Source of the DNA: a virus
Lineage: Duplodnaviria > Heunggongvirae > Uroviricota > Caudoviricetes
Direction: 5' to 3' (one strand)
DNA length: 53,943 bases
IMG/VR virus record: IMGVR_UViG_2869947659_000002
The notes beneath the pieces were generated by a model. That model did no database searches. It was given only the letters and a program-made list of their open reading frames with translations, and was not told where the DNA came from. A program made the translations under genes and the position numbers. Positions 1 through 37,250 of the stretch are shown here, piece by piece. Positions within the stretch are counted from its first letter, which is position 1. Each line of letters opens with the position of its first letter.

Positions 1-147
1 TCAATAAATCCCATCATTGCGATCAACCTCATCCTTAACCATTGATGCGAGCAGTTCTTCCAGTTTCTGCGCTGACAGCTTTACCTGGTGATCTTCAGCA
101 TCTTCCCGGGCTATTGTGGTTCGCGCAGTGGCTGATTTTGCTGACAT
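1..147 (-). CDS. hypothetical small protein (48 aa), speculative
   Basis: ATG at 147..145 to TGA at 3..1; it is the only protein-like part of six-frame ORF 1..282; no recognisable family; weak RBS. Confidence 0.2.
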   Translation of the reverse strand: MSAKSATARTTIAREDAEDHQVKLSAQKLEELLASMVKDEVDRNDGIY

Positions 148-285
148 CACCACAGGGGGCAGACGGACCATTGAACCATGGCCTCCGGAACAAATAAGGG
201 CAAAAATAACAACCACTATCGAAAGCTCACAAACTAACCGCAGCACGTTCCTGCATACGACGTGTCTGCGGCATAATCCCAATGA

Positions 286-555
286 TTACTCCCTGACAGG
301 ATTTGCAGGCCACTCAATATCAGGTACAGTTGATGTATCAACACGATTCAACAATACCCGATATTTATTCCATGCCTCCAGCAACGATCTTTCTTCCTCC
401 GTTGCGATTTCCAGATCTACAGCATCCTGCAGTGGCGCAATATACTCACTGAATTCCTGGATGTAGAACTGTGTGGTGACGGTCTTCCAGCCATTCGGCT
501 CCTGCTGTATCGAAGCATACCAGGCTATTTCAATATCGCTATGCTGCGGCAGCAT
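286..555 (-). CDS. tail fiber assembly protein fragment (Tfa-like C-terminal segment)
   Basis: C-terminal ~55 aa ([53 protein letters not shown]) closely matches the C-terminus of the Tfa at 1335..1685; N-terminal part unrelated; DNA 238..557 is a near-repeat of 1281..1520. Confidence 0.55.
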
Positions 556-611
556 TTAACCCCTTGTAATTCATCGCCATAATTGATTTAATTCACAAAT
601 AAAACTATAAC

Positions 612-1280
612 ATGGTGAAATCAATGAAAAAAAACACAGATGATGGGGCTAAAATTTACACACCACTTACCCTAAAGCTTTATGACTGGTGGGTTTTGGG
701 AGTATCAAATCGGCTTGCATGGGGATGTCCTACAAAGGAACACCTTCTTCCACACTTTCTGGAACATGTAGGTAACAACCATCTGGATATTGGTGTTGGA
801 ACTGGGTTTTACCTTACTCACGTACCTGAGAGTAGTCTGATATCTTTAATGGATTTGAACGAAGCTAGCCTGAACGCGGCATCTACAAGGGCTGGGGAAT
901 CAAAAATTAAACATAAAATTAGCCATGATGTTTTTGAACCTTATCCCGCGGCGTTACATGGTCAATTTGATTCCATTTCCATGTTTTACCTTCTTCACTG
1001 CCTGCCTGGAAATATATCTACAAAAAGCTGTGTAATACGCAATGCGGCGCAGGCCTTAACTGACGATGGAACTCTATACGGAGCCACAATTCTTGGCGAT
1101 GGAGTTGTGCACAATAGCTTCGGTCAAAAACTGATGGGCATTTACAATCAGAAAGGCATCTTTTCAAACACAAAAGATTCCGAAGAAGGCTTAACACATA
1201 TACTCTCAGAGCATTTCGAGAATGTTAAAACCAAGGTTCAAGGTACTGTAGTAATGTTTTCCGCTTCAGGGAAAAAATAG
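612..1280 (+). CDS. class I SAM-dependent methyltransferase (cargo gene)
   Basis: Motif I-like HLDIGVGTGFYL, acidic post-I residue (LMDLNE), motif II-like FDSISMFYLLHCLP; lower GC than flanking phage genes; start could be ATG 612 or ATG 624. Confidence 0.75.
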   Translation: MVKSMKKNTDDGAKIYTPLTLKLYDWWVLGVSNRLAWGCPTKEHLLPHFLEHVGNNHLDIGVGTGFYLTHVPESSLISLMDLNEASLNAASTRAGESKIKHKISHDVFEPYPAALHGQFDSISMFYLLHCLPGNISTKSCVIRNAAQALTDDGTLYGATILGDGVVHNSFGQKLMGIYNQKGIFSNTKDSEEGLTHILSEHFENVKTKVQGTVVMFSASGKK

Positions 1281-1334
1281 CATCCAACCGCAGCACGTTC
1301 TTGCTTAAGACGTGCTGCGGCATAATCCCAATGA

Positions 1335-1685
1335 TTACTCCCTGACAGGATTTGCAGGCCACTCAATATCAGGTGCAGTTGATGTATCAACACGGTTCAG
1401 CAACACCCGATACTTTTTCCAGGCTTCCAGCAATGAGGTTTCTTCCTCCGTTGCAATTTCCAGATCTGCAGCATCCTGAAGCGGCGCAATATGCTCACTG
1501 GCTACCTGCATCAGGTTGTTTTTTGTTTCTTCCGCTTCCCGTATCCGAAACAGTTTTTCTGCTTCTTCATCTTTCACCCAGGATGTGCCGTTCCACTTCT
1601 GAAACTCCCCTTCCGGGGATAACCAGGTGACATTTTCCGGTAATGAGCCGAGTTCAGAAATAAATAACGCGTCGCCGGAAGCCAC
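1335..1685 (-). CDS. tfa: tail fiber assembly protein Tfa, N-terminally truncated (GTG start)
   Basis: Protein matches Tfa of lambdoid phages ([12 protein letters not shown]...[46 protein letters not shown]); in-frame TGA 24 nt upstream of the GTG, so the usual ~75-aa N-terminal part is absent. Confidence 0.7.
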
Positions 1686-1847
1686 GTCATAAACCGTTTT
1701 ACCCCGATGATCCCATCAGTAACAGACAACGGACCTGAAATAGTCCCTCCAGTTGTTGGCAGCGCTCCAATATCTGATGGTGTAGGTTTCTGATGTGAGC
1801 TATACATCGTATAAACAACACCATCGGTAACGCTGGTGGATTTGCCC

Positions 1848-2753
1848 CTATATTTCCAGACATCTGTTATCACTTAACCCATTACAAGCCCGCTGCCGCA
1901 GATATTCCCGTGGCGAGCGATAACCCAGCGCACTATGCGGATGCCATTCGTTATAATGTTCGAACGCCTCTGCAAGGTTCTTTGCTGCCGTTAACCCGTC
2001 TGGTTTGGGCATGATACTGATGTAGTCACGCTTTATCGTTTTCACGAAGCTCTCTGCTATTCCGTTACTCTCCGGACTCCGCACCGCCGTGTTCTTCGGT
2101 TCAAGTCCCAACATCCGGGCGAACTGGCGTGTTTCATTAGCCCGGTAGCATGAACCATTATCCGTCAGCCACTCCACTGGAGACGACGGAAGATCGTTGC
2201 CGAAGCGGCGTTCCACCGCACCCAGCATGACGTCCAGTACTGTTTCACTGTTGAAGCCGCCGGTAGTCACCGCCCAGTGCAGTGCCTCACGATCACAGCA
2301 GTCCAGCGCGAACGTGACACGCAGTCTCTCTCCGTTATCACAGCAGAACTCGAACCCGTCAGAGCACCATCGCTGATTGCTTTCTTTCACGGCCACTCTG
2401 CCTGTATGTGCCCGTTTCGATGGCGGTACAGCAGGTTTTCGCTCAAGCAACAGCGCATTCTGGCGCATGATCCGGTAAACACGTTTGGCATTGATCGCAG
2501 GCATACCATCAAGTTCTGCCTGTCTGCGAAGCAGCGCCCATACCCGACGATAACCATACGTGGGCAGCTCTCCGATAACATGGTGTATACGGAGAAGCAC
2601 ATCCGTATCATCAGTGTGACGACTGAGGCGGCCATCCATCCAGTCATCGGTTCGTCTGAGAATGACGTGCAACTGCGCACGCGACACCCGGAGACAACGG
2701 CTGACTAAGCTTACTCCCCATCCCCGGGCAATAAGGGCGCGTGCGCTATCCAC
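1848..2753 (-). CDS. insD: IS2 transposase OrfB (InsD)
   Basis: 301-aa ORF with IS3-family DDE transposase features; identical to the copy at 46075..46980. Confidence 0.95.
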
Positions 2754-3076
2754 TTTTTTGCCCGTCCATATTCAACGGCTTCTTTGAGGAGTTCATTTTC
2801 CATCGTTTTCTTGCCGAGCAGGCGCTGGAGTTCTTTAATCTGCTTCATGGCGGCAGCAAGTTCAGAGGCAGGAACAACCTGTTCTCCGGCGGCCACAGCA
2901 GTAAGACTTCCTTCCTGGTATTGCTTACGCCAGAGAAATAACTGGCTGGCTGCTACACCATGTTGCCGGGCAACGAGGGAGACCGTCATCCCCGGTTCAA
3001 AGCTCTGCTGAACAATTGCGATCTTTTCCTGTGTGGTACGCCGTCTGCGTTTCTCCGGCCCTAAGACATCAATCAT
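2711..3076 (-). CDS. insC: IS2 OrfA (InsC), HTH protein
   Basis: 121 aa from [18 protein letters not shown]; overlaps insD as expected for a -1 frameshift fusion. Confidence 0.9.
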
Positions 3077-3674
3077 CTGTACTCCAATGACTAGTCTAAA
3101 AACTAGTATTAAGACTATCACTTATTTAAGTGATACTGGTTGTCTGGAGATTCAGGGGGCCAGTCTAGCTGGAAGGCTTACTCGCTGAATATGTTAGCGA
3201 GGTATAAATAGAAACTGACGCATTTGTAGTACAATCCCAATGGATATTTACACTCGTCGCATAATTGCCAATCTCAACGTAAATATCATATATATCGCCG
3301 GATGTGTTGATCCAGGCGAAATTCGTTAATCCGACGGCTGTACGCTTCCACAAAGCTCCGGTAATCCCTTTGGGGTTTCCATTGCCTGCTCGTAGAACCA
3401 GTTCAGATATACCTGCCTGTTGAGGTGCCCCCACGTTAAATCCAGCGCCACCAATCAATGCGATGTAAACGATGGAACTCGCTTGTGGCATGGTAACCGT
3501 TGCCAGTTTGAACCACCCTGCCCCGCCAGAGAAAGAGATCGTTACTGAATTTAAAGTGCCAATATCTTTCGGTGTTAATGTTATATCCGCAGTCAGTGCT
3601 TTCCCGTTAACTTTTCGGTTAGATGGTACCCTGAGGTGTACTGGCAATAGCGGACACTACCATTTGTTCTTTTT

Positions 3675-4493
3675 TTAAGCAGCTATCTGATGATATTTTT
3701 CCCTGAAGGCTGCCGGGGAGATATTCCCCAGACGAGAGTGACGACGCTGACGATTGTAGAAAATCTCAATGTATTCCCGTATTACTGAGATGGCTTCATC
3801 CCGGTTATTAAAACGATAGTGGCTCAGGCTCTCATTTTTCAGCGTTCCCCAGAAGCTTTCCATCGGAGCGTTGTCGTAACAGTGACCTTTACGCGACATT
3901 GATGTTTTCAGACCAGACTGCTCCTGTATGACCCGGTAATCGTATGCGCAGTACTGTGAACCTCGATCAGAGTGGTGGATTAGCCCGGCAGGTGGGCGCT
4001 GGCTCCTGAGCGCCATAAACAGGGCTTTACCTGTCAGCTCTTTTGTCATGCGCTCTCCCATGGCGTAGCCGACAATTTCGCACGTATAAACATCTTTGAT
4101 GCCAGCGAGGTACAACCATCCCTCCTGTGTGGCAACATACGTCAGGTCCGCCACCCAGACCTGATTTGGTGCTGTAGGAGCGAACGTCTGGTTCAGCAGA
4201 TTTGGCGCAACTGGCAGATTGTGGTTCGGGTTCGTAGTCGCTCTGAACTTGCGTTTCTGCTTACAGCGTAGCCTTAGCTCCTTACGAAGACGTGCCAGTC
4301 GGTCACGACCAACGATGATGCCATTCTCTGCCAGCTCCGTCTGGAGCCGCCGGGTTCCATATGTTTCGCGAGTGCGGATATGTGCCACCTTAATCTCCAG
4401 TTTTAGCCGCTCATCACTTTGTTTTCTGTCTGAGGGTTCATGCTGTACCCAGTTGTAATAACCGCTCCTGGATACACCAAATACCTGACACAT
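3675..4493 (-). CDS. IS3-family transposase OrfB (DDE integrase domain)
   Basis: 272-aa ORF; same protein (one residue different at the C-terminus) as the copy at 48769..49587. Confidence 0.9.
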   Translation of the reverse strand: MCQVFGVSRSGYYNWVQHEPSDRKQSDERLKLEIKVAHIRTRETYGTRRLQTELAENGIIVGRDRLARLRKELRLRCKQKRKFRATTNPNHNLPVAPNLLNQTFAPTAPNQVWVADLTYVATQEGWLYLAGIKDVYTCEIVGYAMGERMTKELTGKALFMALRSQRPPAGLIHHSDRGSQYCAYDYRVIQEQSGLKTSMSRKGHCYDNAPMESFWGTLKNESLSHYRFNNRDEAISVIREYIEIFYNRQRRHSRLGNISPAAFREKYHQIAA

Positions 4494-4528
4494 CGCTTCA
4501 ATGGGAAATTGTTGTCGCCATTGTTCGA

Positions 4529-4831
4529 TTAACGCGTATTTTTCAGCGACTCCTGTGCAAAATACGCTGTTGCTTTTTTTAATATATCTCGCTCAAGGCG
4601 AGCTTCATTTAACGCCTTACGCAGTTGCAGAATTTCAGATTCCAGTTCAGCCACCGTGCGGGAACCAGGAGTACCGAGCCCTTTTCTGGCGGCGGTAACC
4701 CATTGTCCTAAAGTGCCTTCAGGAAGGGATAATCGGGAAGCGCCTTCACTGATCGAAAGTTGATTTTCAAGAACCGTTCTGACAGCTTCGGCTTTGAACT
4801 CTTTAGAGTAACGTTGGTTTTTTCTGCTCAT
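4529..4831 (-). CDS. IS3-family OrfA (HTH/leucine zipper)
   Basis: 100-aa ORF MSRKNQRYSKEFKAEAVRTVLENQLSISEGA...; identical to the copy at 48431..48733. Confidence 0.9.
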   Translation of the reverse strand: MSRKNQRYSKEFKAEAVRTVLENQLSISEGASRLSLPEGTLGQWVTAARKGLGTPGSRTVAELESEILQLRKALNEARLERDILKKATAYFAQESLKNTR

Positions 4832-6071
4832 TATTAGCTCCTTCTGATGCCATTCTATTTCAGGAAGGAGTGTCCGTTAAACTCAGGCTACCTCACCCTG
4901 CCATTCGCATTGTCATTCGCTGCTTTAACTGCCTTCGGTGTCGCGGCAAGCGTTTCAGATGTGCTGTTGGTTGCACTGCTGAGCTGTACTATCCCCTTTT
5001 TCGTCGTGCTCGCATCCTCAAGCGCCACGGCGGATGCAATATCCTCTGCCCGTTTTGCCGCTGTCTCGGCGCGCGTTGCCGCGGATTCCGCCGTACTTTT
5101 GCTCTGAGCTGCCGCCGTCACACTGCCAGCTGCCTCTGTCGCCTTCGTGGATGCCGTCGTGGCGCTGCCCTTTGCTGCTGACGCCTGTCTGGTCGCCTCA
5201 TCTTTTGAAGCAGACGCAGATGATGCCGATGACGCCGCCGAACTGGCGGACGATGCGGCAGCCGTTTTTGAGGATTCTGCGCTGGTTTCCGAGGCTTTCG
5301 CGTTCGTTTCGGATGTCTTCGCTGCCTCTTTTGAGGCCGCCGCATCCCGTGCTGAAGTGGCTGCTTCTGACGCTTTCGTGGTCGCGGTGGATGCAGAAGT
5401 GGCTGCTGATTGTTGTGACGCAGCCGCATTCGTTTCTGACGTTTTCGCCGCACCGGCACTGGTAGCCACCGCGCTTTTTGAGGACTCTGCAGCGGCAGCA
5501 CTTTTTGATGCTTCAGTAGCCTTTGTTGATGCCGTTCCTGCGCTGGAAGACGCTGACTGAGCCGACGTCGCGGCCTGCCCGGCTGATGTGCTGGCTGCAC
5601 GTGCTGAGCCTGCAGCATCAGTCGCATGGGTTGCCGCCTCACTGGCAGATATGCTGGCATCGCTGGCTGACTTCTTCGCGGCTGCCGTGTTCTGTGCAAC
5701 CGCGGAGGCGTTACGTGACACCTCTTCCACCATCTGCTCAAAGCGGCGCAGTGCCTCCGGTCGGACATCATCCTCCGTCATGGCACCGAGAAAATCATTC
5801 AGCGTACCTGGTCTGGAACCTTCATAGACGGTAATGGTCCCGGCATGTGAAGGCGGAAAACCTTCAACCAGCAGGGTGACGCTGTACTGGCCATGCTCAA
5901 CATCCATGCTGTAACGTCCGGCTTCATCCGGATTTTCAGAGGCCACCGTGTTCACCACCACCGTGCTGCTGGTTCGTCTGGCCTTCAGCACAATGGTGCA
6001 GTTCTGTACTGGTTTTCCTGTGCCATCTTTAAGCACGCCAGAAATTTTTACTGTCATACTTTTCCACCAAT

Positions 6072-6875: not shown

Positions 6876-9800
6876 TCAGCTAATCGTGATGCCTGCAGTG
6901 GCTTTCTTCATCACCACAACCAGCAAATCGCTGATACTTGCTGTGGGATACCAGTTATTTACCAGCCATGCTGACACCGAAAACTCCAGTGTCATGTGAC
7001 CGTGACCGGCAGGCATATCAATAACACCACTGTAAATCAGCGTATTATCCAGCGCGGTACGGTTATAAATTTCAGCACCGTTTTTCCGCACTATCAGACG
7101 GCATGAGGAGTAAATATCAGTATGCTCTTTCTCATGTTTAGCGCCGCTGAATGCCACCGCCGGAATAACAATCTGCCGGTCAAACGGCTGATCGTCATAA
7201 ACCCTGACGGTAATGGTTCCTGATGGCCACCGCTCCGGTGCACGGGAGTCCCGGGGGAAAGCTTTGCCCACTGTTTTAACGAGATCGCCTTCAATCTGGT
7301 TCGCGGACAATTTTCCCAGAACCCGACAGTTCTCGTTAATCGTGACGTTGTTGAGCGTCCCGGAGTTCGCATTCACGTTACCGCTGATATCGGCATTTTT
7401 CGCCGTCAGCCGCCCGTCCGGTGTCAGGGAAAATGCCGGAGGATTACCGCCGCTGGTAATGGTGGGGGCCGTCAGGCGTTTCAGGAACACGTCGTTCATG
7501 AATATCTGATCACCCTGACCAACAAACATCGGTTTTGTGTTGCCATTTGCAGGATTAATCATCGCAATCCTGTCTGCCGCCAGCAGCACCTGACTCTGCA
7601 TGCCGTCGGGGGTGTTCTCAATACCGGCACCGATACCCGCAATATAAAGGCGTCCGTCCTGCATCTGCTGCAGCTTCACAGCCCACATGCTGTTCAGATT
7701 ATTATTTGTATCAACCTGAACCTTCTGTATCTGCTGGATCGCTGCACTCTGGTCTTCCAGTTTTTTATTGACGGTCTGCGTGATTTCATTGCTGACATCC
7801 GTAATGGACGTCCTGATTTCAGCCAGGTCAGGCGCAAGCTGACCGTTATCAATCTGCGTCCACAACTCCTGAGCCAGATGGGTTTTCCCTATCTCTCCTT
7901 TGAAAAAATCCAGATAGCCGGATGCATCATCACTCGGCTGGCCAACAGCCTCCACAAATGCCGATTTGCCAACAGTATTCACACTGCGGATATAAAAATA
8001 ATAATCATGGCCCGGTTTGATATTGATACTGGCAGCTATCCAGTACAGCGCCGAGCCAAGATAGCGGGCTGCGGTTTCAACCTGCCTGATATCCGCAATC
8101 CGCTTTTCCGAGAACCAGAACTCAAACTGTACCGTCGGGTCATAAACGGCAAGATGCGGCGTGGCGGTTATCTGAAAATAGCCCGGCGTCAGCTCAATCC
8201 GCGACGGTGCTGCCGGTGCGGCAATCCGGAAGGTGGTGGTGGCAGGTTCACCCTGCTGGCCATAGCTGTTTATCGCCCGCACCGTCAGGGTGTATTCCCC
8301 GAGCGGCAGGCCGCTGAAACGGTGCTCCGTGTCTGCGGTGATGGCGGTGGTCACCAGTCTGGCATCCGTTCCCTTACCACTGGTCAGGCGCAGACTGAAG
8401 CGCACGCCCTTCACCACCCGCGGCGTGTCCCATTTAGCCTGCGCCAGATACTGGCCGTCAGCTGCGCTCACCTCCACCGTCAGGTGCTGTACTGCCGGTG
8501 GGATGACGCTGTTCAGGGAGCCTGACTGCGGCTCAAAGCGGGCACCGTTATCCACGATGGCTTCTTTTTCCGGTACGTGCTGCACCGCCGTGATGGCAAA
8601 GGTGCCGTCCGTGTTTTCCCGGATGGAGACACAGCGGAACAGGCGACGGCGCAGTGACGGCAGGGAGAGTCCCCACACCCCGTATGTCTCCACACCATCA
8701 GGCAGGGTACTGACCTGTATCCGGTCCGGCGCGGGGTGTTCGGTGATGTCCACACTCACCGGCTTACCGCTGCCGTTAATCAGGTTCACCGTGGCGGCAC
8801 CGGTCTCCGGCAGGGTAACCTCACGGTCCAGCGTCAGGGTGCGGGTGGCAGCATCAATGGACAGGACACGTCCACCGGTCAGGGTCCCGGCATAGTCATT
8901 ATCACAGATTTCAATAATGTCACCGGGTGTGTGCCGCAGCCCCTGAGACCCGAGCGTGAAATCCACCGTCTGCGTTTCCAGCAGTTCGGTCTTTATCACC
9001 CACAGTCCGGCACGGTGGGCCTGACCGCGGCTGGTACAGCCGAACGCGTCCATCTTCAGCAGATTGCGCCCGTAGCGCAGTATGGCTTCCGGGTCTTCCA
9101 CCAGTTCCGTGGAGGTCTGCCAGCCGTTCTGCGGGTCGGTGTAATTCACCTCCACCGCCGTGTGCCGGTCCTTCAGGGCACTGAAGCTGTAGCGGAACCC
9201 CACGCCGTTATCATCCACCACCACATCGCTGTTGGTGTACGGCCACACCACATCCGACAGGCGGTCCTGAACAAACGTCAGCATCTGGCCGTTCCATACC
9301 GGCATACAGCGCATCGCCGAGCAGAAATCACTGAGAACATCCCACGCCTTACGCTGTTGTGCCAGGTACGCATTGAAGGTCATCCGCGGCTCGGTGCCCC
9401 CGAAGCCATCCGGCACCATCTGGTCGCAGTACTGCCCGATGGCATACAGCGCCCACTTGTCCACATCCGCCGCCCCCAGACGTTTTCCCATGCCGTAGCG
9501 CGGGTGAGTCAGCATGTCCCACAGACACCAGGCCGGATTGTTGCTGTATGCCGGTTTCAGACTGCCGTCCCAGATACCACTGTACGTGCGTTTTTCCGGG
9601 TCATAGTTTGACGGCACCTGGATGATGCGACCGCGGATATGGTAGTTCACCGTCATCTGCTGACCACCAAACTGCTCCGCATCCACCTGCATCCCCACAA
9701 TGGCCGTGTTCGGGTAGCACTGTTTCACATCGATGATTTCGGTGTATGACGACCACAGCGTTCTGTTCTGCAGCTGGTCCGTGGTGCTGTCCGCCGTCTC

Positions 9801-10589: not shown

Positions 10590-11270
10590 TTATCCCTGTC
10601 GCCCGATAACCACGACCTTTCCGCCCCCGCCTTCATCACGGGTGCTGATGTCCTGGGATATACGGCGGGAGCCAACCAGCATTTCCCCGTAAGGCACCGG
10701 CATCGGGTTCCCCTGGGCAATCATGTTATCCAGCGAGGAAAAGTACGTGTTCTGTCTGCCGTTATCCGTTGCGCGGTAATCCGGTGTTTTTGCCTTCGGG
10801 GCCAGCATCTGGGCCACACCGCCCAGAATCATGCTGGCTCCAAGTGAAAACAGCATCGTGGTGGCAGAAAAACCACCGGCTGCCAGGGCTGAACCCCATA
10901 ACGCCATTGATGCCCCGGCAGTGAAGAAAGAGCCCACGATGGCTGCCGCCCCCAACACAATCTGCAGTCCACCCTTTCCGGCCCCGGCCAGTCGCGGCAC
11001 AATGTGGATGACCGTTCCCTCACCCAGCTGTTCGTGAAGGCGGGCGTACACCACCTCCGGTGCCGTGTCTTCACCGGCAATACGTATCTGGTACCAGCCT
11101 TCGTTCATCTGACGGCGAAAGCCCGGCATCTGCATCGACAGGGCGCGGATGGCTTCCGCTGCCATGTTCACATACAGGCTGAGGCGGCGGCCAAATCGTT
11201 GCAAATCCCCGTGAAGGCAGATGTGTGCCAGTGGCGGTGACGCCAGACAGAATGCGTTCGTCGTTGCCAT
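10590..11270 (-). CDS. I: tail assembly protein I
   Basis: 226 aa; matches lambda gpI (ICLHGDLQRFGRR..., C-terminal Gly-rich). Confidence 0.9.
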   Translation of the reverse strand: MATTNAFCLASPPLAHICLHGDLQRFGRRLSLYVNMAAEAIRALSMQMPGFRRQMNEGWYQIRIAGEDTAPEVVYARLHEQLGEGTVIHIVPRLAGAGKGGLQIVLGAAAIVGSFFTAGASMALWGSALAAGGFSATTMLFSLGASMILGGVAQMLAPKAKTPDYRATDNGRQNTYFSSLDNMIAQGNPMPVPYGEMLVGSRRISQDISTRDEGGGGKVVVIGRQG

Positions 11271-11911
11271 TTTTCGGAATACCTCTCCCGTTTACTCAGT
11301 TGTTCAGGAATATGGTGAAGCAGTTCACCGTTGCCGCAGTAAATGGCGGCATGATTAGCCACCGATGCGCCGAAGCAGCACAGCAGGATATCGCCCGGCT
11401 GTGCAGAGGACAGGGGCACCCGGTAAAAGCCGGTGACCGCCATATTGTCCAGGTACAGGTTCTGGCCGTTGCGCCACCAGTCATCCTCGCGATGAAAATC
11501 CGGCATATCAATTCCCGCCAGATGGTATGCATCCCGGAACAGCGTGTAACAGTCCGTCACCCCGTGCTCAAAGCGCCGTCCTGTCAGATGTGGCACACAG
11601 CGGAATTTATGAATTTCCCCCCGGCAGACCAGCCACCAGGGTAGTGCGCTTTTTATCTGCAGCCGCCGGTCAGCCTCGCTCAGCCAGGGCAGCTCACCGG
11701 GATGACTGTGGACCAGTGCCACAATCTCCCCCTGCATCTCTGCCCGCAGCCAGTCTTCCGGTGCGATACGAAAATACGCCTCCGGCTCTGCGGAAATATT
11801 CACACAAGGGATATACCGCTCCCCCTCCGGCGTGCTTATCACGAAGCCGCACGACTCCGCAGGCGCACACCGCCGGGCATGCGCCAGAATCGCTGATTCA
11901 GTCTGTGTCAT
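11168..11911 (-). CDS. K: tail assembly protein K
   Basis: Starts MTQTESAILAHARRCAPAESCGFV... as lambda gpK; six-frame ORF extends upstream to 12172 but the homologous start is ATG 11911; overlaps I as in lambda. Confidence 0.9.
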   Translation of the reverse strand: MTQTESAILAHARRCAPAESCGFVISTPEGERYIPCVNISAEPEAYFRIAPEDWLRAEMQGEIVALVHSHPGELPWLSEADRRLQIKSALPWWLVCRGEIHKFRCVPHLTGRRFEHGVTDCYTLFRDAYHLAGIDMPDFHREDDWWRNGQNLYLDNMAVTGFYRVPLSSAQPGDILLCCFGASVANHAAIYCGNGELLHHIPEQLSKRERYSEKWQRRTHSVWRHRHWHTSAFTGICNDLAAASACM

Positions 11912-25539: not shown

Positions 25540-26059
25540 CGATCCACCCGCCCACGTTTTCACCGGCCTTAGCTGCAACATTGGAGGCTTTCGCGATTTC
25601 AGTTTTCACCACATCAAGGTGTGATGGTGAAATGTCCGGATATTTACGCTGTAATGTCAACGGCACACGCACAAGTATCCCCGAAATCTCCTGTGCCACA
25701 CGTTGCAGAATGAAGGTAAACAGTTCAGTTTTCAGCACCACTCCGTCTTCACGGGCATTTTTCAGTTCCTGCGCATCTGCCTGCGCTTTTGTGAGCCGGT
25801 AGCGTTCATAGTCAATGGTGCCGGGTTGTAAATCTGACTCCGCTGCCGCACGCAAATCGGCCAGTTCTTTGCGGAGCTTTTCGTTTTCGATATCAGTTTC
25901 CCTCTGCGCATACCACTGAATTGCCATGGCAGTATCAAATACAGATTCAATGCCCTTACTGCCTTTGGAGACGCAAGGGAGCCCCTGAGACTGCCAGCGT
26001 TCAATCGTCCGCGGGTCCACGTTAAAAATTTCGGCAAGCCTCTTTTTATTAACCTTCAT
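25511..26059 (-). CDS. nu1: terminase small subunit Nu1
   Basis: From [28 protein letters not shown]...; lambda Nu1-like HTH and ...[29 protein letters not shown]... Confidence 0.9.
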
Positions 26060-26233
26060 AGAACAACCCATTATCAAATACAAGGCCCGACATGAAAACG
26101 CCAGAAAAAGGCATTTTCGGACACTTTCATGTCGGACATTTATGAATGCAATATTAAAAAAAACAAAAAGTTATATTCGAGAAGTACCGACACGATTTTC
26201 CCTGAAAAATTTTCATAAATAGTGAAAAACCGC

Positions 26234-26245
26234 GAGGTCGCCGCC
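26234..26245. other. cosN cohesive-end site (12-nt lambda-type)
   Basis: Minus strand reads ...GTTACGGGGCGGCGACCTCGCGG..., matching the lambda cos sequence GGGCGGCGACCT just upstream of Nu1. Confidence 0.8.
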
Positions 26246-26469
26246 CCGTAACGATCTGGATCACAGGAAAGGACCCGCCAACGACTTTCGCGTGCAGGCA
26301 TTAAAAATTTTGCAGTTCCATGCCTAGTTGAAACCTCGATTTCTATAACATCCAATTTTGTAAATTTAGATATAGCTCAACTTTTCCCAATGTTTTCAAG
26401 TGTATAAAAACAATTGGCGTTACGCCATAACACTATACTTAGGATAAGTAAAGATTTTAAGGAGTTTTA

Positions 26470-27537
26470 ATGAGTCAACATCAATATTATCCACAGCTGA
26501 AATGGAAGCCTGCTGAATATGAATCTCTGATGCTTTTAGATCAAACTACGCTCTCTGGTTTTACTCCGATCATTACCATTCCAGACATAGACTGGGATTA
26601 TGAAAACGAATGCTACAAGAAGAATTTGAGTTCTTACTTATCTGACTTCGGTATTAACCTTGCGGCATCCTGGAAAGCCAATCGTCCTGTTTTGCTGGAT
26701 GTTAAATATTTAGATAAACATGGTTCGAGCCGCCATCATCCTCTAGATATGTGTATCCAAGATGCTAGAGTAAATGGTAAGGAAATTATCCCTGTTGTTT
26801 CTCCCGCATATTCAACAAACTATATACATGCTGTTCAACGCAACTTAATCAATGGGCTCGCTATATCTATCACCCCCCAGACATGGCACCAATTCACAAG
26901 TCTGGTTAACCACTTAAATATTCATCCTAGTTTAATTGATGTAATCATTGATTTTGGAGATATTCAAAACGCAACTGATAGTTTAAAACAACAAGCATTA
27001 AGCATGGTCAACACATTATCAGGCCAAGCTCCGTGGAGAAACTTGATTTTATCTTCAACCGCATACCCGGCATCACAGGCAGGGATACCGCAACATCAAG
27101 TTCATCATATTCCGCGCCATGAATACGATCTTTGGATGTACGTAGTACAGAATTTTAGCAATGGAAGAACGCCAAGTTTTAGTGATTATCCCACCGCTAG
27201 CTCTACCATTACGAGCGTAGACCCACGCTTCATGTCTCAGTATGTCTCAGTGAGATATTCGAACGATACCTCATGGATCTTTGTAAAAGGTACCGCAGTT
27301 AAAGGAAATGGATGGGGCCAAACTAAAAACTTATGTACTACCCTTGTTAGTTCGCCAGAGTATCAAGTCTTTGGCTCCAAATTTAGTTGGGGGGATGATT
27401 ACATTTACCAAAGATCATTAGGCGCTAACAAATCTGGCGGCTCTAAAGAATGGCGTAAAGTTGCACATACGCACCATATTACGTTAGTCGTGAGACAGCT
27501 TTATTGGTTGGCGCAGACTCAGCCTGCCAAGCCTTAA
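26470..27537 (+). CDS. hypothetical protein (355 aa), cargo gene; candidate component of a two-gene module
   Basis: ATG with AAGGAG RBS 7 nt upstream; AT-richer than phage genes; no motif I can assign; 3' end overlaps the convergent gene 27479..28099 by 59 bp. Confidence 0.7.
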   Translation: MSQHQYYPQLKWKPAEYESLMLLDQTTLSGFTPIITIPDIDWDYENECYKKNLSSYLSDFGINLAASWKANRPVLLDVKYLDKHGSSRHHPLDMCIQDARVNGKEIIPVVSPAYSTNYIHAVQRNLINGLAISITPQTWHQFTSLVNHLNIHPSLIDVIIDFGDIQNATDSLKQQALSMVNTLSGQAPWRNLILSSTAYPASQAGIPQHQVHHIPRHEYDLWMYVVQNFSNGRTPSFSDYPTASSTITSVDPRFMSQYVSVRYSNDTSWIFVKGTAVKGNGWGQTKNLCTTLVSSPEYQVFGSKFSWGDDYIYQRSLGANKSGGSKEWRKVAHTHHITLVVRQLYWLAQTQPAKP

Positions 27538-28099
27538 CTTTCCAGCCTACGCGTTTCTTTAAGGCTGTTCTGACTTCAGGCCTGAGATTCGCTATTGGAA
27601 TATTTTCCGCAATAATATTCCATAACTCAAATCGGGGCTTGCTTTTGATTCCTTTGGAATAGCCCCATCGTTCAAGTACGTCGATACATTCATCTTTCCA
27701 AAGCAATTGAGCGAGCATCAATGTGTCATGGTTTCGATTAAGCTTTTCTCCACGCATGTGCTTTATAAGAATGGCGCCTTTTGGCCCAACAGAAACCGTT
27801 TTAACGCCCCACCAACCTGGGATTAACTTTAATGCTCCCTCAAGGTGTTTCTCAGCTACGACAAGAGTAACCTTGTCCATTACAGAAGAATAATGCTTGA
27901 TTTGAAGAGGCAAACGCTCCAAAGAGTCATATTCACTTTTGAGCTCGTACCCGTGTATAACACCATTTATTACAGCAATGTCTGCTCTACTGGCGCCAAG
28001 GGATATGGAAAATTCATCGACCACAAGGCAGTCTGGATCTAAATGCGATTCTTTCAAAAGCTTATGATGCACCGCGAACCTAACATCTTGATCTTTCAT
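27479..28099 (-). CDS. hypothetical protein (206 aa) with PD-(D/E)xK-like nuclease motif
   Basis: ATG with AAGGAG RBS; segment SRADIAVINGVIHGYELKSEYD fits the D...(E)xK restriction-endonuclease-fold signature; sits at the lambda bor position. Confidence 0.7.
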   Translation of the reverse strand: MKDQDVRFAVHHKLLKESHLDPDCLVVDEFSISLGASRADIAVINGVIHGYELKSEYDSLERLPLQIKHYSSVMDKVTLVVAEKHLEGALKLIPGWWGVKTVSVGPKGAILIKHMRGEKLNRNHDTLMLAQLLWKDECIDVLERWGYSKGIKSKPRFELWNIIAENIPIANLRPEVRTALKKRVGWKVKAWQAESAPTNKAVSRLT

Positions 28100-28448
28100 G
28101 ACTTCTCCTTACTCCCTCCGTTATTGAATTATAGCGCACTGCATTTTACTGCATTTGAGAGATTTGACCACTTCAATCACAAAATGCTTATCTGCAGCAA
28201 CAAGATTCATAGCCATACGACTATGGTGATTACCTTTTGTCTGGAAAAATGACCATTCCACGAAGATCAGATAGGTCTATAGAATCTTGGTTTGTCATAG
28301 CGTTCGTCTTACTTTGAGATGAACCTTTGCTGCATAGGAGATCAGCCCGTCAAGGCTCACCAGCACTAACTGACTACTCAAAGGCTCATTCCAAAGGGTT
28401 TGGTTCGACGTGGTTGAGTGCGCTGCGGTGCGCGGTGAAATACCTGTA

Positions 28449-28480
28449 CAAAAATGCCCCGCATCTGCGAGGCATTTTCC
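28449..28480. terminator. bidirectional hairpin terminator downstream of Rz
   Basis: AAAATGCC-12 nt loop-GGCATTTT stem with A/T tracts on both sides. Confidence 0.5.
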
Positions 28481-28515
28481 TGAAAGTCACGTATTAAATT
28501 TCAGTGAAATTAAAA

Positions 28516-28989
28516 TTATTTTAAGCACTGCGTCCTGATGTACTCCTGCAGGTAGTTGACCTGAGCGGTTAACTTGTCGATTCCACTTCGGAGACGGTAA
28601 TAATTGAGTTCAGCATCTGCTGTAAGTCTTGGGCTTTCTCCATCGCCCATGCTGCTGGCTCCGGTCGTTGACTTTGCACAGGTGGCGGCGACTTGCAGGC
28701 GCTTACGCCCAGCAGAAACATCAGCACGAAGACTTTCGATAGTCGCGTTAGCATCAGCAAGCTCCTTTGTGTATCTGGCGTCGAGTTCTGCTACATCACG
28801 CTGACGCATCTGCATGTCAGTAATTGCCACGTTCGCCAGCTTCAGTTCTCTGGCATTTTTGTCGCGCTGGGCTTTGTAGGTAATGGCGTTATCGCGGTAA
28901 TGATTAACAGCCCATGACAGGCAGACGATGGTGCAGATAACCAGAGTATAAATAATCGCTGCGACTCTGCTCACTGAGCTATCCCCCAA
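28516..28989 (-). CDS. Rz: i-spanin Rz
   Basis: 157 aa with N-terminal TM, coiled-coil; immediately downstream of the lysozyme gene. Confidence 0.85.
28569..28760 (-). CDS. Rz1: o-spanin Rz1 (lipoprotein embedded in Rz, +1 frame)
   Basis: 63-aa ORF inside Rz with lipobox-like LLGVSAC and Pro-rich [13 protein letters not shown]. Confidence 0.7.
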
Positions 28990-29504
28990 CAGGCTAATGC
29001 GCTTTCCTGGTCACGACGAATAACCTGTCCATAGCAGTTATTTGAACGTATGCGGCAATCGCGCCCACCATCTTTTATCCACCAGCGAATCGCCTCGCAT
29101 GCGCCCTTACGATCACCGGCATTCAGCCGCTTATAAAACGTCGACGGGAAACACTTACCGGGGCCAATGTTATAGGGACATAATGACGCTATACCCGCTT
29201 TCTGTGGTTCGGTCAGTGGTACTTTAATATTGCGCTCCACCCATGCCAGCGCCTTATCACGTTCAATAGCGTTAACCTGGTCGCATTTTTCCTTCGACAG
29301 CTTCATTCCCGGTATGACGGGCTTACCATCCACCATTGTGGCACCACGACAGATGGTCCATATACCGGAACCATCGCGGTATGCCGTAGTGTGGTTACCC
29401 TCTTTTTCATCCAGAAACTGGTCAAGTATTTGAGGAGCAGACGCGCCTGCAGCAATCAGCGCCAGAACAGCAGCTGACAGGCCGTATTTGATTTTTGCGC
29501 TCAT
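28971..29504 (-). CDS. R: phage lysozyme (endolysin, lysozyme-like fold, with N-terminal signal-anchor)
   Basis: 177 aa; hydrophobic N-terminus [14 protein letters not shown] then ...[18 protein letters not shown]... Confidence 0.9.
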
Positions 29505-29559
29505 GGATATTTATCAGGATGCTACCAATGAAAGATACTGGAAAGCCAACTGCAAAAAG

Positions 29560-29874
29560 CTAACAACCCGTAATCGAGTTATCAGAACTGTTAATTTTTA
29601 TGGTATACCGCGCCTCTGAACAGGGGCGCGTTTCTGGCAACAGCTCGTCCCCTTCACATAACCCGGCAGCAACATCCAGGAAGACCTGTCTGATGCTCCT
29701 TCTGGCTGCTGCCTCATAAAACTCCAGCGCGGCACCTTCAACACGGTCCAGCGAGATGTCCAGGTCAAAAATTTCACCGTCAAAGCGTTTTTTGTCCCGT
29801 AACGCTAAAGTTACCGTAACTTTATTCTCAAAATTGCGGATCCCTTTCACAATCAGTTCATAGTTTTGAGTCAT
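29560..29874 (-). CDS. small phage protein between holin and lysozyme (YdfR-like by position)
   Basis: 104-aa ORF in the same position as ydfR between essQ and rrrQ in Qin; assignment from position and size only. Confidence 0.5.
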   Translation of the reverse strand: MTQNYELIVKGIRNFENKVTVTLALRDKKRFDGEIFDLDISLDRVEGAALEFYEAAARRSIRQVFLDVAAGLCEGDELLPETRPCSEARYTIKINSSDNSITGC

Positions 29875-29878
29875 TGAA

Positions 29879-30094
29879 TTACTCTCCCCGTGCAGCCTTA
29901 CGACGGTCCTCTCTGATTTTGAAATACAGGTTAGTCAGATATGTCAGCAGCCCAAACAGCAGACTCCCCAGCACGCCTATTGCCGCCCACTGAGACGGGG
30001 AAACCCTGTCCAGCAACTGCAGGAACCAGTAGCCCGTTCCCACCGCTGACGTGGTGTATGACACACCTGTTGTGATTTTTTCCATCTGGTACAT
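29879..30094 (-). CDS. S: holin (phage 21 S-type pinholin family), dual-start motif
   Basis: [71 protein letters not shown]; two TM segments; Met1 and Met4 dual start; six-frame ORF extends to 30172. Confidence 0.85.
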
Positions 30095-30244
30095 ACCCCG
30101 TCTCCCGTTATCCGGAAGCTGACAACAATAAAAAAAGCCACCAGTTAAGTACTGATGGCTCTGATAACTCATGCAGGCATCTCAGACGACCCACTGACAC
30201 TACCGGTGAGTTTAACGATACCTTCCATTTGACTGGCTCACTTT

Positions 30245-32101
30245 TTATGATGATGCTGGTGCATTTATCTCCAGCACCAGACTTTCTATCTCAACGCCAT
30301 ACGCTGCATTTTTGGTAATATCCGTCAGCGTCAGCGCATTCAGCCCCAGTGTCAGACTGTCTTTTATGACCTGGAATGCCGGGCCAGCCACTCCATTCAG
30401 TTTCGGAGTAACCGTGGCACTGCCGGCGGTGAACACCAGCTCCAGCGTCTGCCAGTCGTTACTGTAATTCCCGAACTCGCCCAACTTTGTGTTTCCTGCT
30501 TTCCTGTGATGCATCAGATTCAGTTTGCCGTCTGTGGTCTGGGTGAAGAACGACATCAGGAACGGGTTACCAGTCCCGGTCATCGCCACGACGTCAGGTA
30601 ACGCTACATCGGTATACAGATAAATTCCCAGACCGAACTGGTTGTTGGTCAGTGCGCCTGACAGTCGAAACTTACAGCTCAGTCTGCCACCCCGTGTCAG
30701 CAGGGAGACTGCGTCATCCACCGGATGCATCAGGGACCAGGTTTTATTGCTCTGCTTGGTAACCTTAAACACACCATCTTCCAGCGCAACACTGCCGCCG
30801 GTGATGGTCCAGCCCTGCGCAGCAGCCTCTCCGGCTGTCGGCAGCAGGGAGACTGTACGAACGGATGTGTCACCATCAGACGGCCCCGATGGAGTGTCGC
30901 CGCCGGGCGAGGGTTTGATTTCCGGTGCCTTACCACTAATGAAGGCTAAGGTGCGACCGGCTACGTTCAGAATAGCAGTTGCCATACGATCGGGAATAAT
31001 GCCACGACGCGCCCATGAGCTGAAATGCGTCGGGCGATTTGATGATACCCAGTTTTTGTTCGTTCGGGATGCCGAACCGTAATAACCAGACCCGGCAATA
31101 TCAGGATCTTCTGACGGGTTGTTTGTCGGTGTATTAACTCCGCTACCATCGGTCATAAAGGGAACAAAATAAATCTGCTGGGATTCTTTACCTTTATATG
31201 CACCATATACCACTTCATATTGCGTACCGTGTTCTTGTTTCCACGCGTATGTCGTGTCGCCACAAATCCAGGGGACTGATGCCGGACTTCCACCGTGACA
31301 CTGCGCCGCCAGCCCGGCAAGGTCAGCACGGAACTGCTGTACCATTGCAAGAAATGCTGCTGGCTGCTGGGCGTAACTGGCATTCGTCATATCGAATTCC
31401 CCCTGCATCCAGCATATCGCCAGCAAAACGTTTTTCGGGTTTTTCTGCAATGCTGCCTTCGTGCGGAAAAGCAGATCCTGATATAACGGCTTACCCACTC
31501 CCCAGCGAGCCGAATCCTGACTGGCCCCCGTGGACTCGCTGAATGTCCCCTCCGTGCCCTGGGTGAATGCCGAACCACCACGACAGCATGGTACCAGCAG
31601 GATCCCCGCGTTATTAGGGATATACGGAAGCAGTTTTTTGGCAATATGTAAGCCCTGTCCGACACAGCCGTACTGCCCTTTGCTCAGGTCAGCCCGGGGA
31701 TGGTTAATCGTACTCATATCCTGAACATCATGCAGACAATGGTCAGCAGGAATGATGTCGTTAAATACGCATACTTCACCACCGGGAGTCACTGTGTTAC
31801 GACGGGCCAGTTGCTTAATGCGCGGATGGGGCGCATCGTATGAATCCGGCAGCGGAAGCCCTTCACCGTAAGCCATGGCATTGGACTGCCCGGCCAGTAC
31901 GATGACGTAGTACCAATCCGGCTCAGTTGCACCACTGACCACCACATCACCTTCTGCTGCAATCGCCTGCATCAGGGTATAAGGGGTTATGGCCACCGGA
32001 CTACCAAACGGCTGCCAGCCCTCCTTCAGTTTTTGTGTCAGTCGTTTCGCAAGGTCTGACGGCGATACCGCCCTGACCACGTCATAGTGTTTAAATGCCA
32101 T
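30245..32101 (-). CDS. prophage 9-O-acetyl-sialate esterase (NanS-p-like, SGNH/SASA domain)
   Basis: 618 aa; N-terminal small domain, then YVIVLAGQSNAMAYGE (GQSN esterase motif); strong RBS GGGAGGA; same slot as nanS-p downstream of stx in Stx phages. Confidence 0.85.
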   Translation of the reverse strand: MAFKHYDVVRAVSPSDLAKRLTQKLKEGWQPFGSPVAITPYTLMQAIAAEGDVVVSGATEPDWYYVIVLAGQSNAMAYGEGLPLPDSYDAPHPRIKQLARRNTVTPGGEVCVFNDIIPADHCLHDVQDMSTINHPRADLSKGQYGCVGQGLHIAKKLLPYIPNNAGILLVPCCRGGSAFTQGTEGTFSESTGASQDSARWGVGKPLYQDLLFRTKAALQKNPKNVLLAICWMQGEFDMTNASYAQQPAAFLAMVQQFRADLAGLAAQCHGGSPASVPWICGDTTYAWKQEHGTQYEVVYGAYKGKESQQIYFVPFMTDGSGVNTPTNNPSEDPDIAGSGYYGSASRTNKNWVSSNRPTHFSSWARRGIIPDRMATAILNVAGRTLAFISGKAPEIKPSPGGDTPSGPSDGDTSVRTVSLLPTAGEAAAQGWTITGGSVALEDGVFKVTKQSNKTWSLMHPVDDAVSLLTRGGRLSCKFRLSGALTNNQFGLGIYLYTDVALPDVVAMTGTGNPFLMSFFTQTTDGKLNLMHHRKAGNTKLGEFGNYSNDWQTLELVFTAGSATVTPKLNGVAGPAFQVIKDSLTLGLNALTLTDITKNAAYGVEIESLVLEINAPASS

Positions 32102-32325
32102 GAATCCTCCCGGCCGGGATAATATTGTGAGTAAAATAAGGAGCGGGCTGAAGTCCGGAAGTTACAGGACAATGGCAGAAGAGAGACGACAGCCCGCAAT
32201 TCGAAAAAGACCGCGCAGTTGCGCAGAGTGATTACTATGGGGTATTATTCGCCAGCTGAAATATTACTTCACGTTTTATTGTTTATTCCTTGCCGCCCGC
32301 GTCTCCCAGCGCGGGCTTTTTTTGC

Positions 32326-32575
32326 CCACAAGAAAACCCCTCCGGAGAGGGGCTAAAGCCGCGTATCTGTATCATCATGCACATGGTGCCGGGTGCCTCC
32401 CGGTGAGTTCAGCCCGGTGCCACTAAACCCGCGTCATTCTCGTTTTGATAATCAGAGATTATACCGTCACCAGTCGCCCCTCCGCTCAGGGGGATTCACC
32501 ATGCGAAATTTTTTTAACAAATGCCCAGTCTGACAGGCAACTGTCAACTTACTGAATTGTGAGCAACATAGCATT
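32326..32575. repeat. structured ~245-bp repeat unit A (imperfect direct repeat of unit B)
   Basis: Shares conserved blocks with 32815..33060: CCCCTCCGGAGAGGGGCT hairpin, CATGGTGCCGGGTGCCTCCCGGTGA, GCCCCTCCGC.CAGGGGGATTCACCATGC, CTGAATTGTGAG. Confidence 0.6.
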
Positions 32576-32814
32576 TAACGGGGAACCTGTTTTCTGCAGT
32601 AAAAAGGCCCACCGGAGCGGATGGGCCTGGAAGGATAGCGGTCATGTGATGCCGGTTTCCCGGTAACTCAGCACCGGTATCTGAGTCAACGTTTTCTCTA
32701 CTGGGTCATTTCCGATACGCCCTGCCTGCTGACAGGCTTTCATCACATCTGAAAATATAGCACCCTGACTGATACTGTAGTACCTAAGGTTCCAGAAACT
32801 GTGATGTATCCGGC

Positions 32815-33060
32815 ACAGAAAAGCCCCTCCGGAGAGGGGCTGGAGAGTGGCGCTATGTGCCATTGCATGGTGCCGGGTGCCTCCCGGTGAATTCAGTACC
32901 AGCACCTGAATCCGCGATTATCCCATATACCTACTCGCTGATTGCCCCTCCGCACAGGGGGATTCACCATGCCAGTTTCTTTTAACAAACTCCCCGCAAA
33001 CCAGACAACAGTCAACCGCCTGAATTGTGAGACATTTAAAAAAAAGCCCGCAAAAGCGAG
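32815..33060. repeat. structured ~245-bp repeat unit B
   Basis: See unit A; the GC hairpin is followed by a T-tract on the minus strand (terminator-like); lies directly downstream of the tRNA cluster. Confidence 0.6.
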
Positions 33061-33076
33061 CCAGGGAAAATAAGTG

Positions 33077-33153
33077 TGGCGCGTTGTACTGGATTCGAAC
33101 CAGTGACCGATTGCTTAGAAGGCAATTGCTCTGTCCGGCTGAGCTAACAACGC
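33077..33153 (-). tRNA. argN: tRNA-Arg (anticodon UCU)
   Basis: 77-nt cloverleaf read by eye: GCGUUGU acceptor, D-arm AGCUCAGCCGGACAGAGC, anticodon loop CUUCUAA, T-loop GGUUCGAAUCC, CCA end. Confidence 0.85.
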
Positions 33154-33166
33154 AGGATACAGATAA

Positions 33167-33243
33167 TGGACCGCCTTCGGGGACCCGAACTCCGCGCAAC
33201 CAGCTTCGAAGGCTGGCGCTCTTTCCTGATGAGCTAATGGCGG
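33167..33243 (-). tRNA. tRNA-like gene, probably tRNA-Arg (anticodon UCG), possibly degenerate
   Basis: Anticodon stem-loop CCAGC-CUUCGAA-GCUGG and CCA end, but an A-A mismatch in the acceptor stem and an imperfect T-stem. Confidence 0.5.
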
Positions 33244-33250
33244 TATGTGA

Positions 33251-33326: not shown

Positions 33327-33366
33327 GGGAGCCGCATAATAACGACGCGTAATTAATTCTTCAATA

Positions 33367-34992: not shown

Positions 34993-34997
34993 CAACA

Positions 34998-36190: not shown

Positions 36191-36202
36191 CAGTCACCTC
36201 TT

Positions 36203-37249: not shown

Positions 37250-37250
37250 G

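Follow-up and report, generated by a model that had tools for sequence, protein, structure and literature searches.

A probable ready-made moron cassette with a ybcY-family methyltransferase gene, embedded in tfa-derived sequence at the tail fiber end of a lambdoid prophage

The moron concept, which covers lom, bor, ompT, and similar lambdoid genes, is said to go back to Hendrix and colleagues. In the DLP12 prophage of Escherichia coli K-12 (strain ER1821R), the genes run in the order nohD, a terminase remnant, a remnant of a tail fiber assembly (tfa) gene, a frameshifted gene annotated as "class I SAM-dependent methyltransferase" (SAM, S-adenosylmethionine), a tfa remnant with an internal stop, appY, and ompT. 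By the K-12 gene names, the trio around the methyltransferase gene is tfaD-ybcY-tfaX. The divergent pair is named ybcY and tfaX in the K-12 literature (PMC3946193). Here we analyzed a counterpart of this locus at one end of IMG/VR virus record IMGVR_UViG_2869947659_000002 (Caudoviricetes), a stretch of 53,943 nucleotides that we call the window. Its ybcY-family class I SAM-dependent methyltransferase gene (positions 612 to 1280, plus strand; 222 amino acids as listed, with the stop codon at 1278 to 1280) is an orthologue of ybcY, as judged by near-identity and by the shared tfa-methyltransferase-tfaX synteny, and the cassette that carries it is already known, annotated, and ordinary for a lambdoid prophage. 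The literature that we searched yielded no functional study of ybcY, of DLP12 tfaX, or of such a moron methyltransferase.

We consider it likely that positions ~463 to 1334 form a ready-made moron cassette that is mobile among lambdoid phages and encodes an expressed methyltransferase of small or lipid molecules to the benefit of the lysogen. Such a cassette, found in many Escherichia and Shigella lambdoid phages, would consist of an AT-rich promoter spacer, the gene for a predicted cytoplasmic methyltransferase of 218 amino acids, and a strong stem-loop with which the convergent tfa gene ends as well, and it would be embedded in tfa-derived sequence, with a tfaX remnant on its left and the resident tfa on its right. 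It may pass from phage to phage through homologous recombination within the conserved 3' ends of tfa genes. In the prophage, the gene would be expressed from its own predicted sigma-70 promoter, probably damped by H-NS, and the enzyme would methylate a molecule of the cell or its environment that is small or lipid-soluble (by O-, N-, or C-methylation) without a partner protein, presumably serving the lysogen rather than virion production. In the window, the cassette is intact and the neighboring tail fiber locus is destroyed.

The core is near-clonal, and the flanks are mosaic. In eight comparison contexts (K-12, 55989, ev243, Kati, O157:H7, one E. coli strain, Shigella flexneri, and Escherichia albertii), the core at 463 to 1334, which comprises the N-terminal piece of tfaX, the spacer, the methyltransferase gene, and the right hairpin, is 97 to 100% identical in nearly every segment, with the right hairpin falling to 89 to 93% in two of the eight; the tfa-derived flanks fall to 86 to 87% in K-12, Kati, ECMA0423, and S. 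flexneri. Break points of homology, mapped in 60 evenly sampled genomes and 80 viral contigs, recur on the left at 214, 236, 308 to 309, 331, and 504 to 526 and on the right at 1306 to 1326 (the hairpin, in many contexts), 1429 to 1432, 1455, and 1463. Exactly at the hairpin, O157:H7 carries extra cargo in the form of catalase and ferritin-like genes, and in phage Kati, 1.75 kb that includes a DNA invertase gene has been added between the cassette and tfa; on its right, the conserved cassette ends with the right stem-loop. Sequence derived from tfa flanks the gene in every Escherichia or Shigella context sampled, and in each of the 42 sampled E. coli records with the gene, the match also covers a tfa annotation. 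Because the core is near-clonal and the flanks are diverged, because the breaks cluster in the flanks and hairpins, and because the two tfa copies are different alleles (see below), we infer, with support from these alignments, that the cassette has moved from phage to phage through recombination in tfa sequence. A reading made from the sequence alone (the sequence-only reading) had seen here a cargo gene captured by recombination between tfa genes and had called for a comparison with related prophages. That comparison recovers the same tfa-cargo arrangement in the relatives and supports the proposed route, but the capture is old and widespread and is not an event of this prophage.

The gene also has several marks of a moron. 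Its G+C content is 41%, compared with ~49 to 57% around it overall, 47 to 49% in the flanking tfa sequence and mostly 50 to 61% in the stf, lom, and J genes beyond, a deviation from its neighbors of the kind by which morons are recognized. It is transcribed in the direction opposite to that of the late tail genes and lies at the extreme tail fiber end. In 55989 it sits no more than about 600 bp from the prophage end, adjoining yciE/ompW, and the distance to the contig end is similar in many IMG/VR prophage calls. NCTC9066 has a tfa gene with the same hairpin and 3' flank and no cassette, the absence from a relative that is looked for in a moron, and tfaQ-type genes match the tfa part only. The proposal that this is cargo at the tail fiber end thus holds; the gene is not a housekeeping gene of this position, and no characterized family claims the protein.

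Between the divergent ORFs (open reading frames) of the methyltransferase and tfaX lies an AT-rich spacer of 68 nucleotides (556 to 623, plus strand), 95.6 to 100% identical across contexts, with several sigma-70-like hexamer pairs. One is TTAACC-16-CATAAT at 556 to 583; another, TTGATT-17-TATAAC at 583 to 611, is the hexamer pair listed for K-12 ybcY. Genomic SELEX (systematic evolution of ligands by exponential enrichment) in K-12 placed an RpoD-holoenzyme site with this pair, together with an H-NS site, in the ybcY-tfaX spacer (PMC3946193). A promoter within 556 to 623 is therefore plausible as a prediction, and the methyltransferase transcript is assumed to end at the right hairpin.

Four generic class I methyltransferase domains of Pfam exceed their gathering scores on the 222-amino-acid ORF: Methyltransf_12 (37.5 bits; cutoff, 30), Methyltransf_23 (27.7; cutoff, 27), Methyltransf_25 (27.6; cutoff, 27), and Methyltransf_11 (24.6; cutoff, 21.2). 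The methyltransferase-fold gene called at 612 to 1280 from sequence inspection is therefore present, and the profile search proposed as its check agrees with the call. The protein matches PHROG 2132 end to end (E value, 6.2e-156), with ORF residues 5 to 222 aligned to profile positions 1 to 218 of 218; we found no difference from this family, which is labeled "unknown function" and has no function attached to it. The true start is likely ATG 624, which would give a product of 218 amino acids, because the equivalent of M5 is the start in every homologue from another genus and is invariant in a 29-sequence alignment, because the PHROG profile begins at residue 5, and because a Shine-Dalgarno-like GGTGA (614 to 618) lies 5 nucleotides 5' of this ATG. 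A 45-amino-acid ORF on the minus strand (1225 to 1362) runs across the 3' end of the methyltransferase gene and the hairpin; its equivalents in 55989 and K-12 are labeled "hypothetical protein" or "nucleocapsid protein" by RefSeq, and it is probably an annotation artifact.

In the class I fold, SAM is held by the glycine-rich motif I and by acidic residues after strands 2 and 3. The motif LDIGVGTG (D59, G61, G63, and G65) and residues D81, D106, and D120 are invariant among the 29 homologues aligned, the protein has the seven-stranded alpha/beta fold that defines class I methyltransferases, and an AlphaFold model of the ybcY-family protein is confident (predicted local distance difference test [pLDDT] score, 90.4). 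Its best fold matches are phosphatidylethanolamine N-methyltransferase, JHAMT, CysG/BelI/SgvM, phosphoethanolamine methyltransferase, DhpI, and Coq5, and a sequence search of the Protein Data Bank (PDB) returned weak local matches to JHAMT and UbiG (E value for UbiG, 6e-4). Every NCBIfam score was far below its cutoff (PmtA, 14.6 bits versus 390; RquA, 16.8 versus 175; CpaM, 17.6 versus 180), and the protein is not an equivalog-level member of PmtA, RquA, or UbiG, the match to UbiG being local only. It differs from PmtA (8ys9), UbiG, JHAMT, and CysG/BelI/SgvM, with which it shares only 12 to 21% identity, and its motifs YDWWVL, HDVF, and YNxKGIFSN cannot be assigned to any of these families. 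Overall, the enzyme resembles small-molecule or lipid methyltransferases and not DNA methyltransferases. Its substrate may perhaps be a small or lipid-soluble compound that is common to many proteobacteria or their environments.

The gene is widespread in E. coli and its phages. Of 5426 complete E. coli genomes, 3836 carry the methyltransferase DNA (window positions 560 to 1285) at ≥95% identity, the median copy number being one. Fourteen phage records have the methyltransferase at ≥97.7% protein identity, including the inducible lambdoid phages ev243, 2G7b, Kati, and Turner and the PhiR series, and at least 167 IMG/VR stretches encode a relative, of which the 80 listed are ≥98% identical.

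Several observations weigh against the reading of this cassette as a mobile unit with an expressed, useful enzyme. The mosaicism of the flanks could also arise by gene conversion from another resident tfa gene, the cassette itself not moving. Promoter-like hexamer pairs were no more frequent than in shuffled sequence (2 versus an expected 3.5), and no U-tract directly follows the hairpin on the plus strand. The K-12 copy is frameshifted, so the gene is dispensable in the laboratory. The fold matches all lie at ~12 to 21% identity with none outstanding, and the gene neighborhoods of homologues give no clue to the substrate; the proposed substrate class is therefore tentative.

The frameshift in K-12 ybcY also speaks for a different explanation, in which the gene is dead cargo, a functionless hitchhiker kept by its linkage to often-recombining tail fiber sequence. 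In the window, the gene lies among pseudogenes and insertion sequence (IS) elements, the adjoining tfaX ORF has stop codons in some alleles, and the coding sequences within E. coli phages are too alike for selection to be measured (synonymous divergence [dS], ≤0.007). However, most copies by far, including the one in the window, have an undisrupted ORF (the protein cluster at 99% identity has 6589 member sequences), and inducible phages carry it intact. Conservation across genera is strong, with 59 invariant columns in the 29-sequence family alignment and a ratio of nonsynonymous to synonymous substitution rates (dN/dS) of ~0.11 relative to the Enterobacter and Klebsiella homologues; as far as these alignments go, the family is under purifying selection. 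We therefore regard dead cargo as distinctly unlikely, and we continue to favor a moron whose product is of use to the lysogen.

Outside Escherichia, members of the family occur at 50 to 68% identity in 272 species-representative genomes, among them those of Yersinia, Proteus, Erwinia, Pantoea, Pasteurellaceae, Pseudomonas, Xanthomonadales, and Oxalobacteraceae. We examined neighborhoods in Salmonella, Enterobacter, Yersinia, Erwinia, Aeromonas, Klebsiella, and Citrobacter and at 80 species-representative loci. Homologues at 50 to 68% identity are stand-alone chromosomal genes across the Gammaproteobacteria, and no tfa sequence was found near homologues of ≤75% identity. Their neighbors are kept only within genera (e.g., DUF6388, enoyl-CoA hydratase, and CorA in Pseudomonas), and no neighbor is conserved across genera beyond two apparently generic families, of which one is a short-chain dehydrogenase and the other is presumably a LysR-type regulator. 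Intermediate homologues (79 to 90% identity) lie in other mobile contexts, namely, a prophage end with DinI or IS-flanked islands, and IS-flanked copies occur in Aeromonas and Klebsiella. From these contexts, the enzyme appears to be self-sufficient and to need no partner protein. A pairing of methyltransferase and esterase, to which an alpha/beta hydrolase beside the cassette in ev243 and O157 and a carboxylesterase beside the Erwinia homologue had pointed, was rejected, as the two hydrolases are unrelated. In E. coli, a homologue of 83% identity (L104, 6001 to 6663; L105, 3199 to 3861) lies in an IS-bounded island together with a tannase, a TetR regulator, a catechol-type O-methyltransferase, and an esterase; this one context gives a possible hint of phenolic-compound metabolism.

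These surroundings bear on a second alternative, an anti-phage defense or counter-defense gene that might, for example, methylate a signaling molecule or a receptor component. The position would suit it, being a prophage accessory hot spot beside genes of benefit to the lysogen (lom, ompT, appY, and catalase), of the sort where prophages often keep defense genes, and so would the spread of a single self-sufficient gene by mobile elements, the IS-flanked Aeromonas and Klebsiella copies included. In contrast, PADLOC gave no meaningful match (the best was mad2, with an E value of 0.0099 and 12.7 bits), and in Salmonella, Enterobacter, Yersinia, Erwinia, and Pseudomonas, the homologues lie outside defense islands as ordinary genes of the chromosome. 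A defense role is improbable on this evidence.

The repeats that bound the cassette invite a third explanation. The left direct repeat (236 to 462, minus strand) and the right one (1286 to 1511, minus strand) each hold the last 58 codons of tfa, the stop codon, and a 3' hairpin; the left corresponds to Caudo_TAP positions 75 to 130, and the right is the end of the resident tfa. The repeats are 227 bp long at 90% identity, as are both of their aligned parts (266 to 462 versus 1315 to 1511 and 236 to 264 versus 1286 to 1314), a likeness far beyond chance. The duplicated tfa ends described in the sequence-only reading are thus real, although its limits for them (238 to 557 and 1281 to 1520) were too generous. 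The hairpin that it saw at the end of each copy is there as well. The left stem-loop (238 to 271), at the 3' flank of the tfa remnant, has a minimum free energy (MFE) of -18.8 kcal/mol (z = -3.9 relative to shuffled sequence) and is followed on the minus strand by a U-rich tail, giving a terminator-like site at 255 to 239. The right stem-loop (1288 to 1320; MFE, -25.1 kcal/mol; z = -4.9 relative to shuffled sequence) is common to the convergent methyltransferase gene and tfa, the latter with its stop codon at 1335 to 1337.

Direct repeats around the cassette could mean that a tfa end was duplicated on site, whether because insertion of the cassette created a target duplication or because a Pin/Gin-type invertible tail fiber segment left debris, and the DNA invertase between cassette and tfa in phage Kati would fit the latter. 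Yet the two copies in the window are 10% diverged, mostly at synonymous sites (proportions of differing synonymous and nonsynonymous sites, pS = 0.26 and pN = 0.07), and they are therefore two different functional alleles and not the product of a recent local duplication. Furthermore, invertible segments carry the alternative tfa inverted, whereas these copies are direct; no invertase turned up near the cassette, where the adjoining ORFs are tail fiber remnants and IS transposases; and the sequence of the left copy varies between contexts, whereas the core does not. Duplication in place is accordingly very improbable.

The left copy forms part of a tfaX-type chimeric ORF of 89 amino acids (286 to 555, minus strand), the equivalent of K-12 tfaX, in which 31 N-terminal codons (463 to 555) unrelated to tfa precede the C-terminal 58 residues of Tfa; only residues 31 to 86 are tfa-like, and phrog_2341 matches the ORF over positions 1 to 88 of 88. 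Alleles of tfaX show a low dN/dS, that is, a bias toward synonymous change, and some of them, in K-12 and in phage Kati, have in-frame stop codons. Because alleles with such stops exist, exchange with functional tfa genes explains the low ratio better than selection on tfaX, which we rejected, and the ORF is probably a remnant rather than a selected gene. On the right, the truncated tfa (1335 to 1685, minus strand) encodes 116 amino acids from a GTG and matches Caudo_TAP positions 14 to 130 (E value, 1e-42). Neither flanking ORF has a full-length Caudo_TAP match, the left one covering positions 75 to 130 of 131, and both are short in comparison with the intact protein of 194 amino acids.

A role as a nucleic-acid methyltransferase, be it to shield the DNA of phage or host from restriction or to mark RNA, is barely credible, as the protein has no DPPY/NPPY-type motif and no DNA methylase match in Pfam or PADLOC, its best sequence and fold matches are small-molecule enzymes, and the prophage already has a typical N6_N4 DNA methyltransferase at 33367 to 34425. 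Specifically, the ybcY-family protein has no match to the N6_N4, Dam, or Dcm profiles of Pfam or to any PADLOC methyltransferase, and it does not combine a DPPY/NPPY or PC/ENV catalytic motif with a DNA methylase profile. The resident N6_N4 enzyme served as a positive control and was readily recovered (N6_N4_Mtase E value, 2.8e-43). Because the protein is not of the DNA methyltransferase type, DNA-type changes in host methylation, which had been suggested as something to look for, are unlikely.

The damage to the tail fiber locus is a separate matter, for which the intact prophage of E. coli 55989 (L002) served as reference. Window positions 1 to 1712 correspond to L002 positions 8001 to 9712 at 99.1% identity, and 1702 to 1836 correspond to 11001 to 11135, so that an 11-bp shared sequence (1702 to 1712) marks the junction of a 1289-bp deletion. 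This deletion removed the 5' third of tfa (~68 of 194 codons) and ~1.08 kb of the stf 3' end, and the 585-bp tfa of 55989 aligns only up to window position 1712. Next to the junction lies an internal stf fragment (1713 to 1836, minus strand), out of frame with tfa; an stf-derived frame (1873 to 1574, minus strand) crosses the junction in a frame other than that of tfa, the offset of 188 between 1873 and 1685 not being divisible by 3. The sequence-only reading was correct that tfa lacks its N-terminal third and that the stf frame runs into it out of frame. Both features come from a later deletion plus IS insertions and are unrelated to the capture of the cargo.

An IS2 element (1837 to 3167, minus strand), with rve and HTH_21 transposase domains, interrupts stf with a 5-bp target duplication, its flanks mapping to L002 positions 11001 to 11135 and 11131 to 11596 with a 5-bp overlap. 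A 1264-bp IS3-family element, also in stf and with a target duplication, lies at about 3634 to 4894 (3632 to 4895, minus strand). Further copies stand elsewhere in the prophage, a second IS2 at 45660 to 46991 (99.9% identical) and the IS3-family element at 48367 to 49630 and 50107 to 51369, for a total of five IS elements (two IS2 and three IS3 family), one of each kind inside stf. So many IS elements suggest a host that is Shigella-like or otherwise IS-expanded. No complete E. coli genome examined has an exact match to the deletion junction (window positions 1691 to 1730), and the combination of deletion and IS2 occurs in 0 of 80 IMG/VR loci.

At the very end of the prophage, the C-terminal part of a DUF4376-type tail fiber gene remnant (1 to 282, minus strand) runs off the start of the window. 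Its residues 34 to 93 are matched by phrog_1141 ("tail fiber protein") and phrog_7703, and its equivalent in 55989 is a RefSeq DUF4376 pseudogene that adjoins yciE/ompW. The Rfam family IS009 (RF02111) matches 1378 to 1576 (minus strand) at 218.8 bits, above its gathering score of 117, wholly inside tfa coding sequence, and the left copy (329 to 532, minus strand; 112.5 bits) falls just under that threshold. This "RNA family" looks like conserved tfa coding sequence, so membership in it would say little about RNA function; a published analysis likewise places IS009 within genes (PMC5331693).

Elsewhere in the prophage, a convergent overlapping pair (26470 to 27537, plus strand, and 27479 to 28099, minus strand) adjoins the terminase small-subunit gene. 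One product matches the Pfam family Beta_protein (E value, 7e-56) and the PADLOC PD-Lambda-2_C/beta models, and the other matches PADLOC "cll" (E value, 8e-31), which makes the pair candidate anti-phage defense cargo in a second accessory slot. Three tRNA genes (33080 to 33326) and two copies of the small RNA STnc100 (32324 to 32533 and 32811 to 33001) precede the N6_N4 DNA methyltransferase gene, which lies downstream of both sets on the minus strand and whose product has a DPPY motif and a PADLOC MTase_II match (E value, 4e-164). This arrangement is the layout of Stx-type phages, and no stx genes were seen among the listed ORFs of ≥80 amino acids across 26000 to 37500. From its DUF1737, SASA (sialate O-acetylesterase), and DUF6645 domains, a 618-amino-acid ORF (30245 to 32101, minus strand) is a predicted NanS-p-like esterase, as found beside the lysis genes in Stx-type prophages. 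In the early region, Rfam recognizes a sok antitoxin RNA of a hok/sok-type module (38214 to 38388, minus strand) and the antisense RNA DicF (45487 to 45538, plus strand).

As a feature of a genome, the locus carries little weight, for it has the routine annotation "class I SAM-dependent methyltransferase" and is present in most E. coli genomes. It is nevertheless a clean example of conserved tfa 3' ends acting as handles, with near-clonal cargo behind many tail fiber modules, and it flags a very common and strongly conserved orphan enzyme family with at least 272 proteobacterial species representatives. We consider unlikely the bolder proposal that this is a lysogenic-conversion methyltransferase that modifies a host membrane lipid or quinone, or detoxifies a small molecule of the gut or environment, and thereby changes how fit or how susceptible to phages ~70% of E. 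coli strains are. If it were true, the frameshift in the K-12 copy may be the only reason why such an enzyme was overlooked.

Genes at this locus are ordered and oriented as in DLP12, and identity is 98.9% for the nucleotides of the methyltransferase gene and 98 to 99% for the N-terminal piece of tfaX and for the right hairpin; the locus likewise lies at the tail fiber end of a lambdoid prophage, adjoining accessory genes. The two differ in that DLP12 has a frameshift in ybcY and an in-frame stop in tfaX, and the tfa-derived flanks are only 87 to 96% identical. The tail genes of DLP12 are deleted and tfaD abuts terminase remnants, whereas the prophage in the window is mostly present, with stf and tfa broken. 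As with the lambdoid morons, the unit lies between genes that are contiguous in relatives and deviates in G+C content, and its location between the tail fiber genes and the attachment site, adjoining lom and, in relatives, ompT, is also the same. In contrast to those morons, the product of the ybcY family is a predicted cytoplasmic enzyme rather than an envelope protein.

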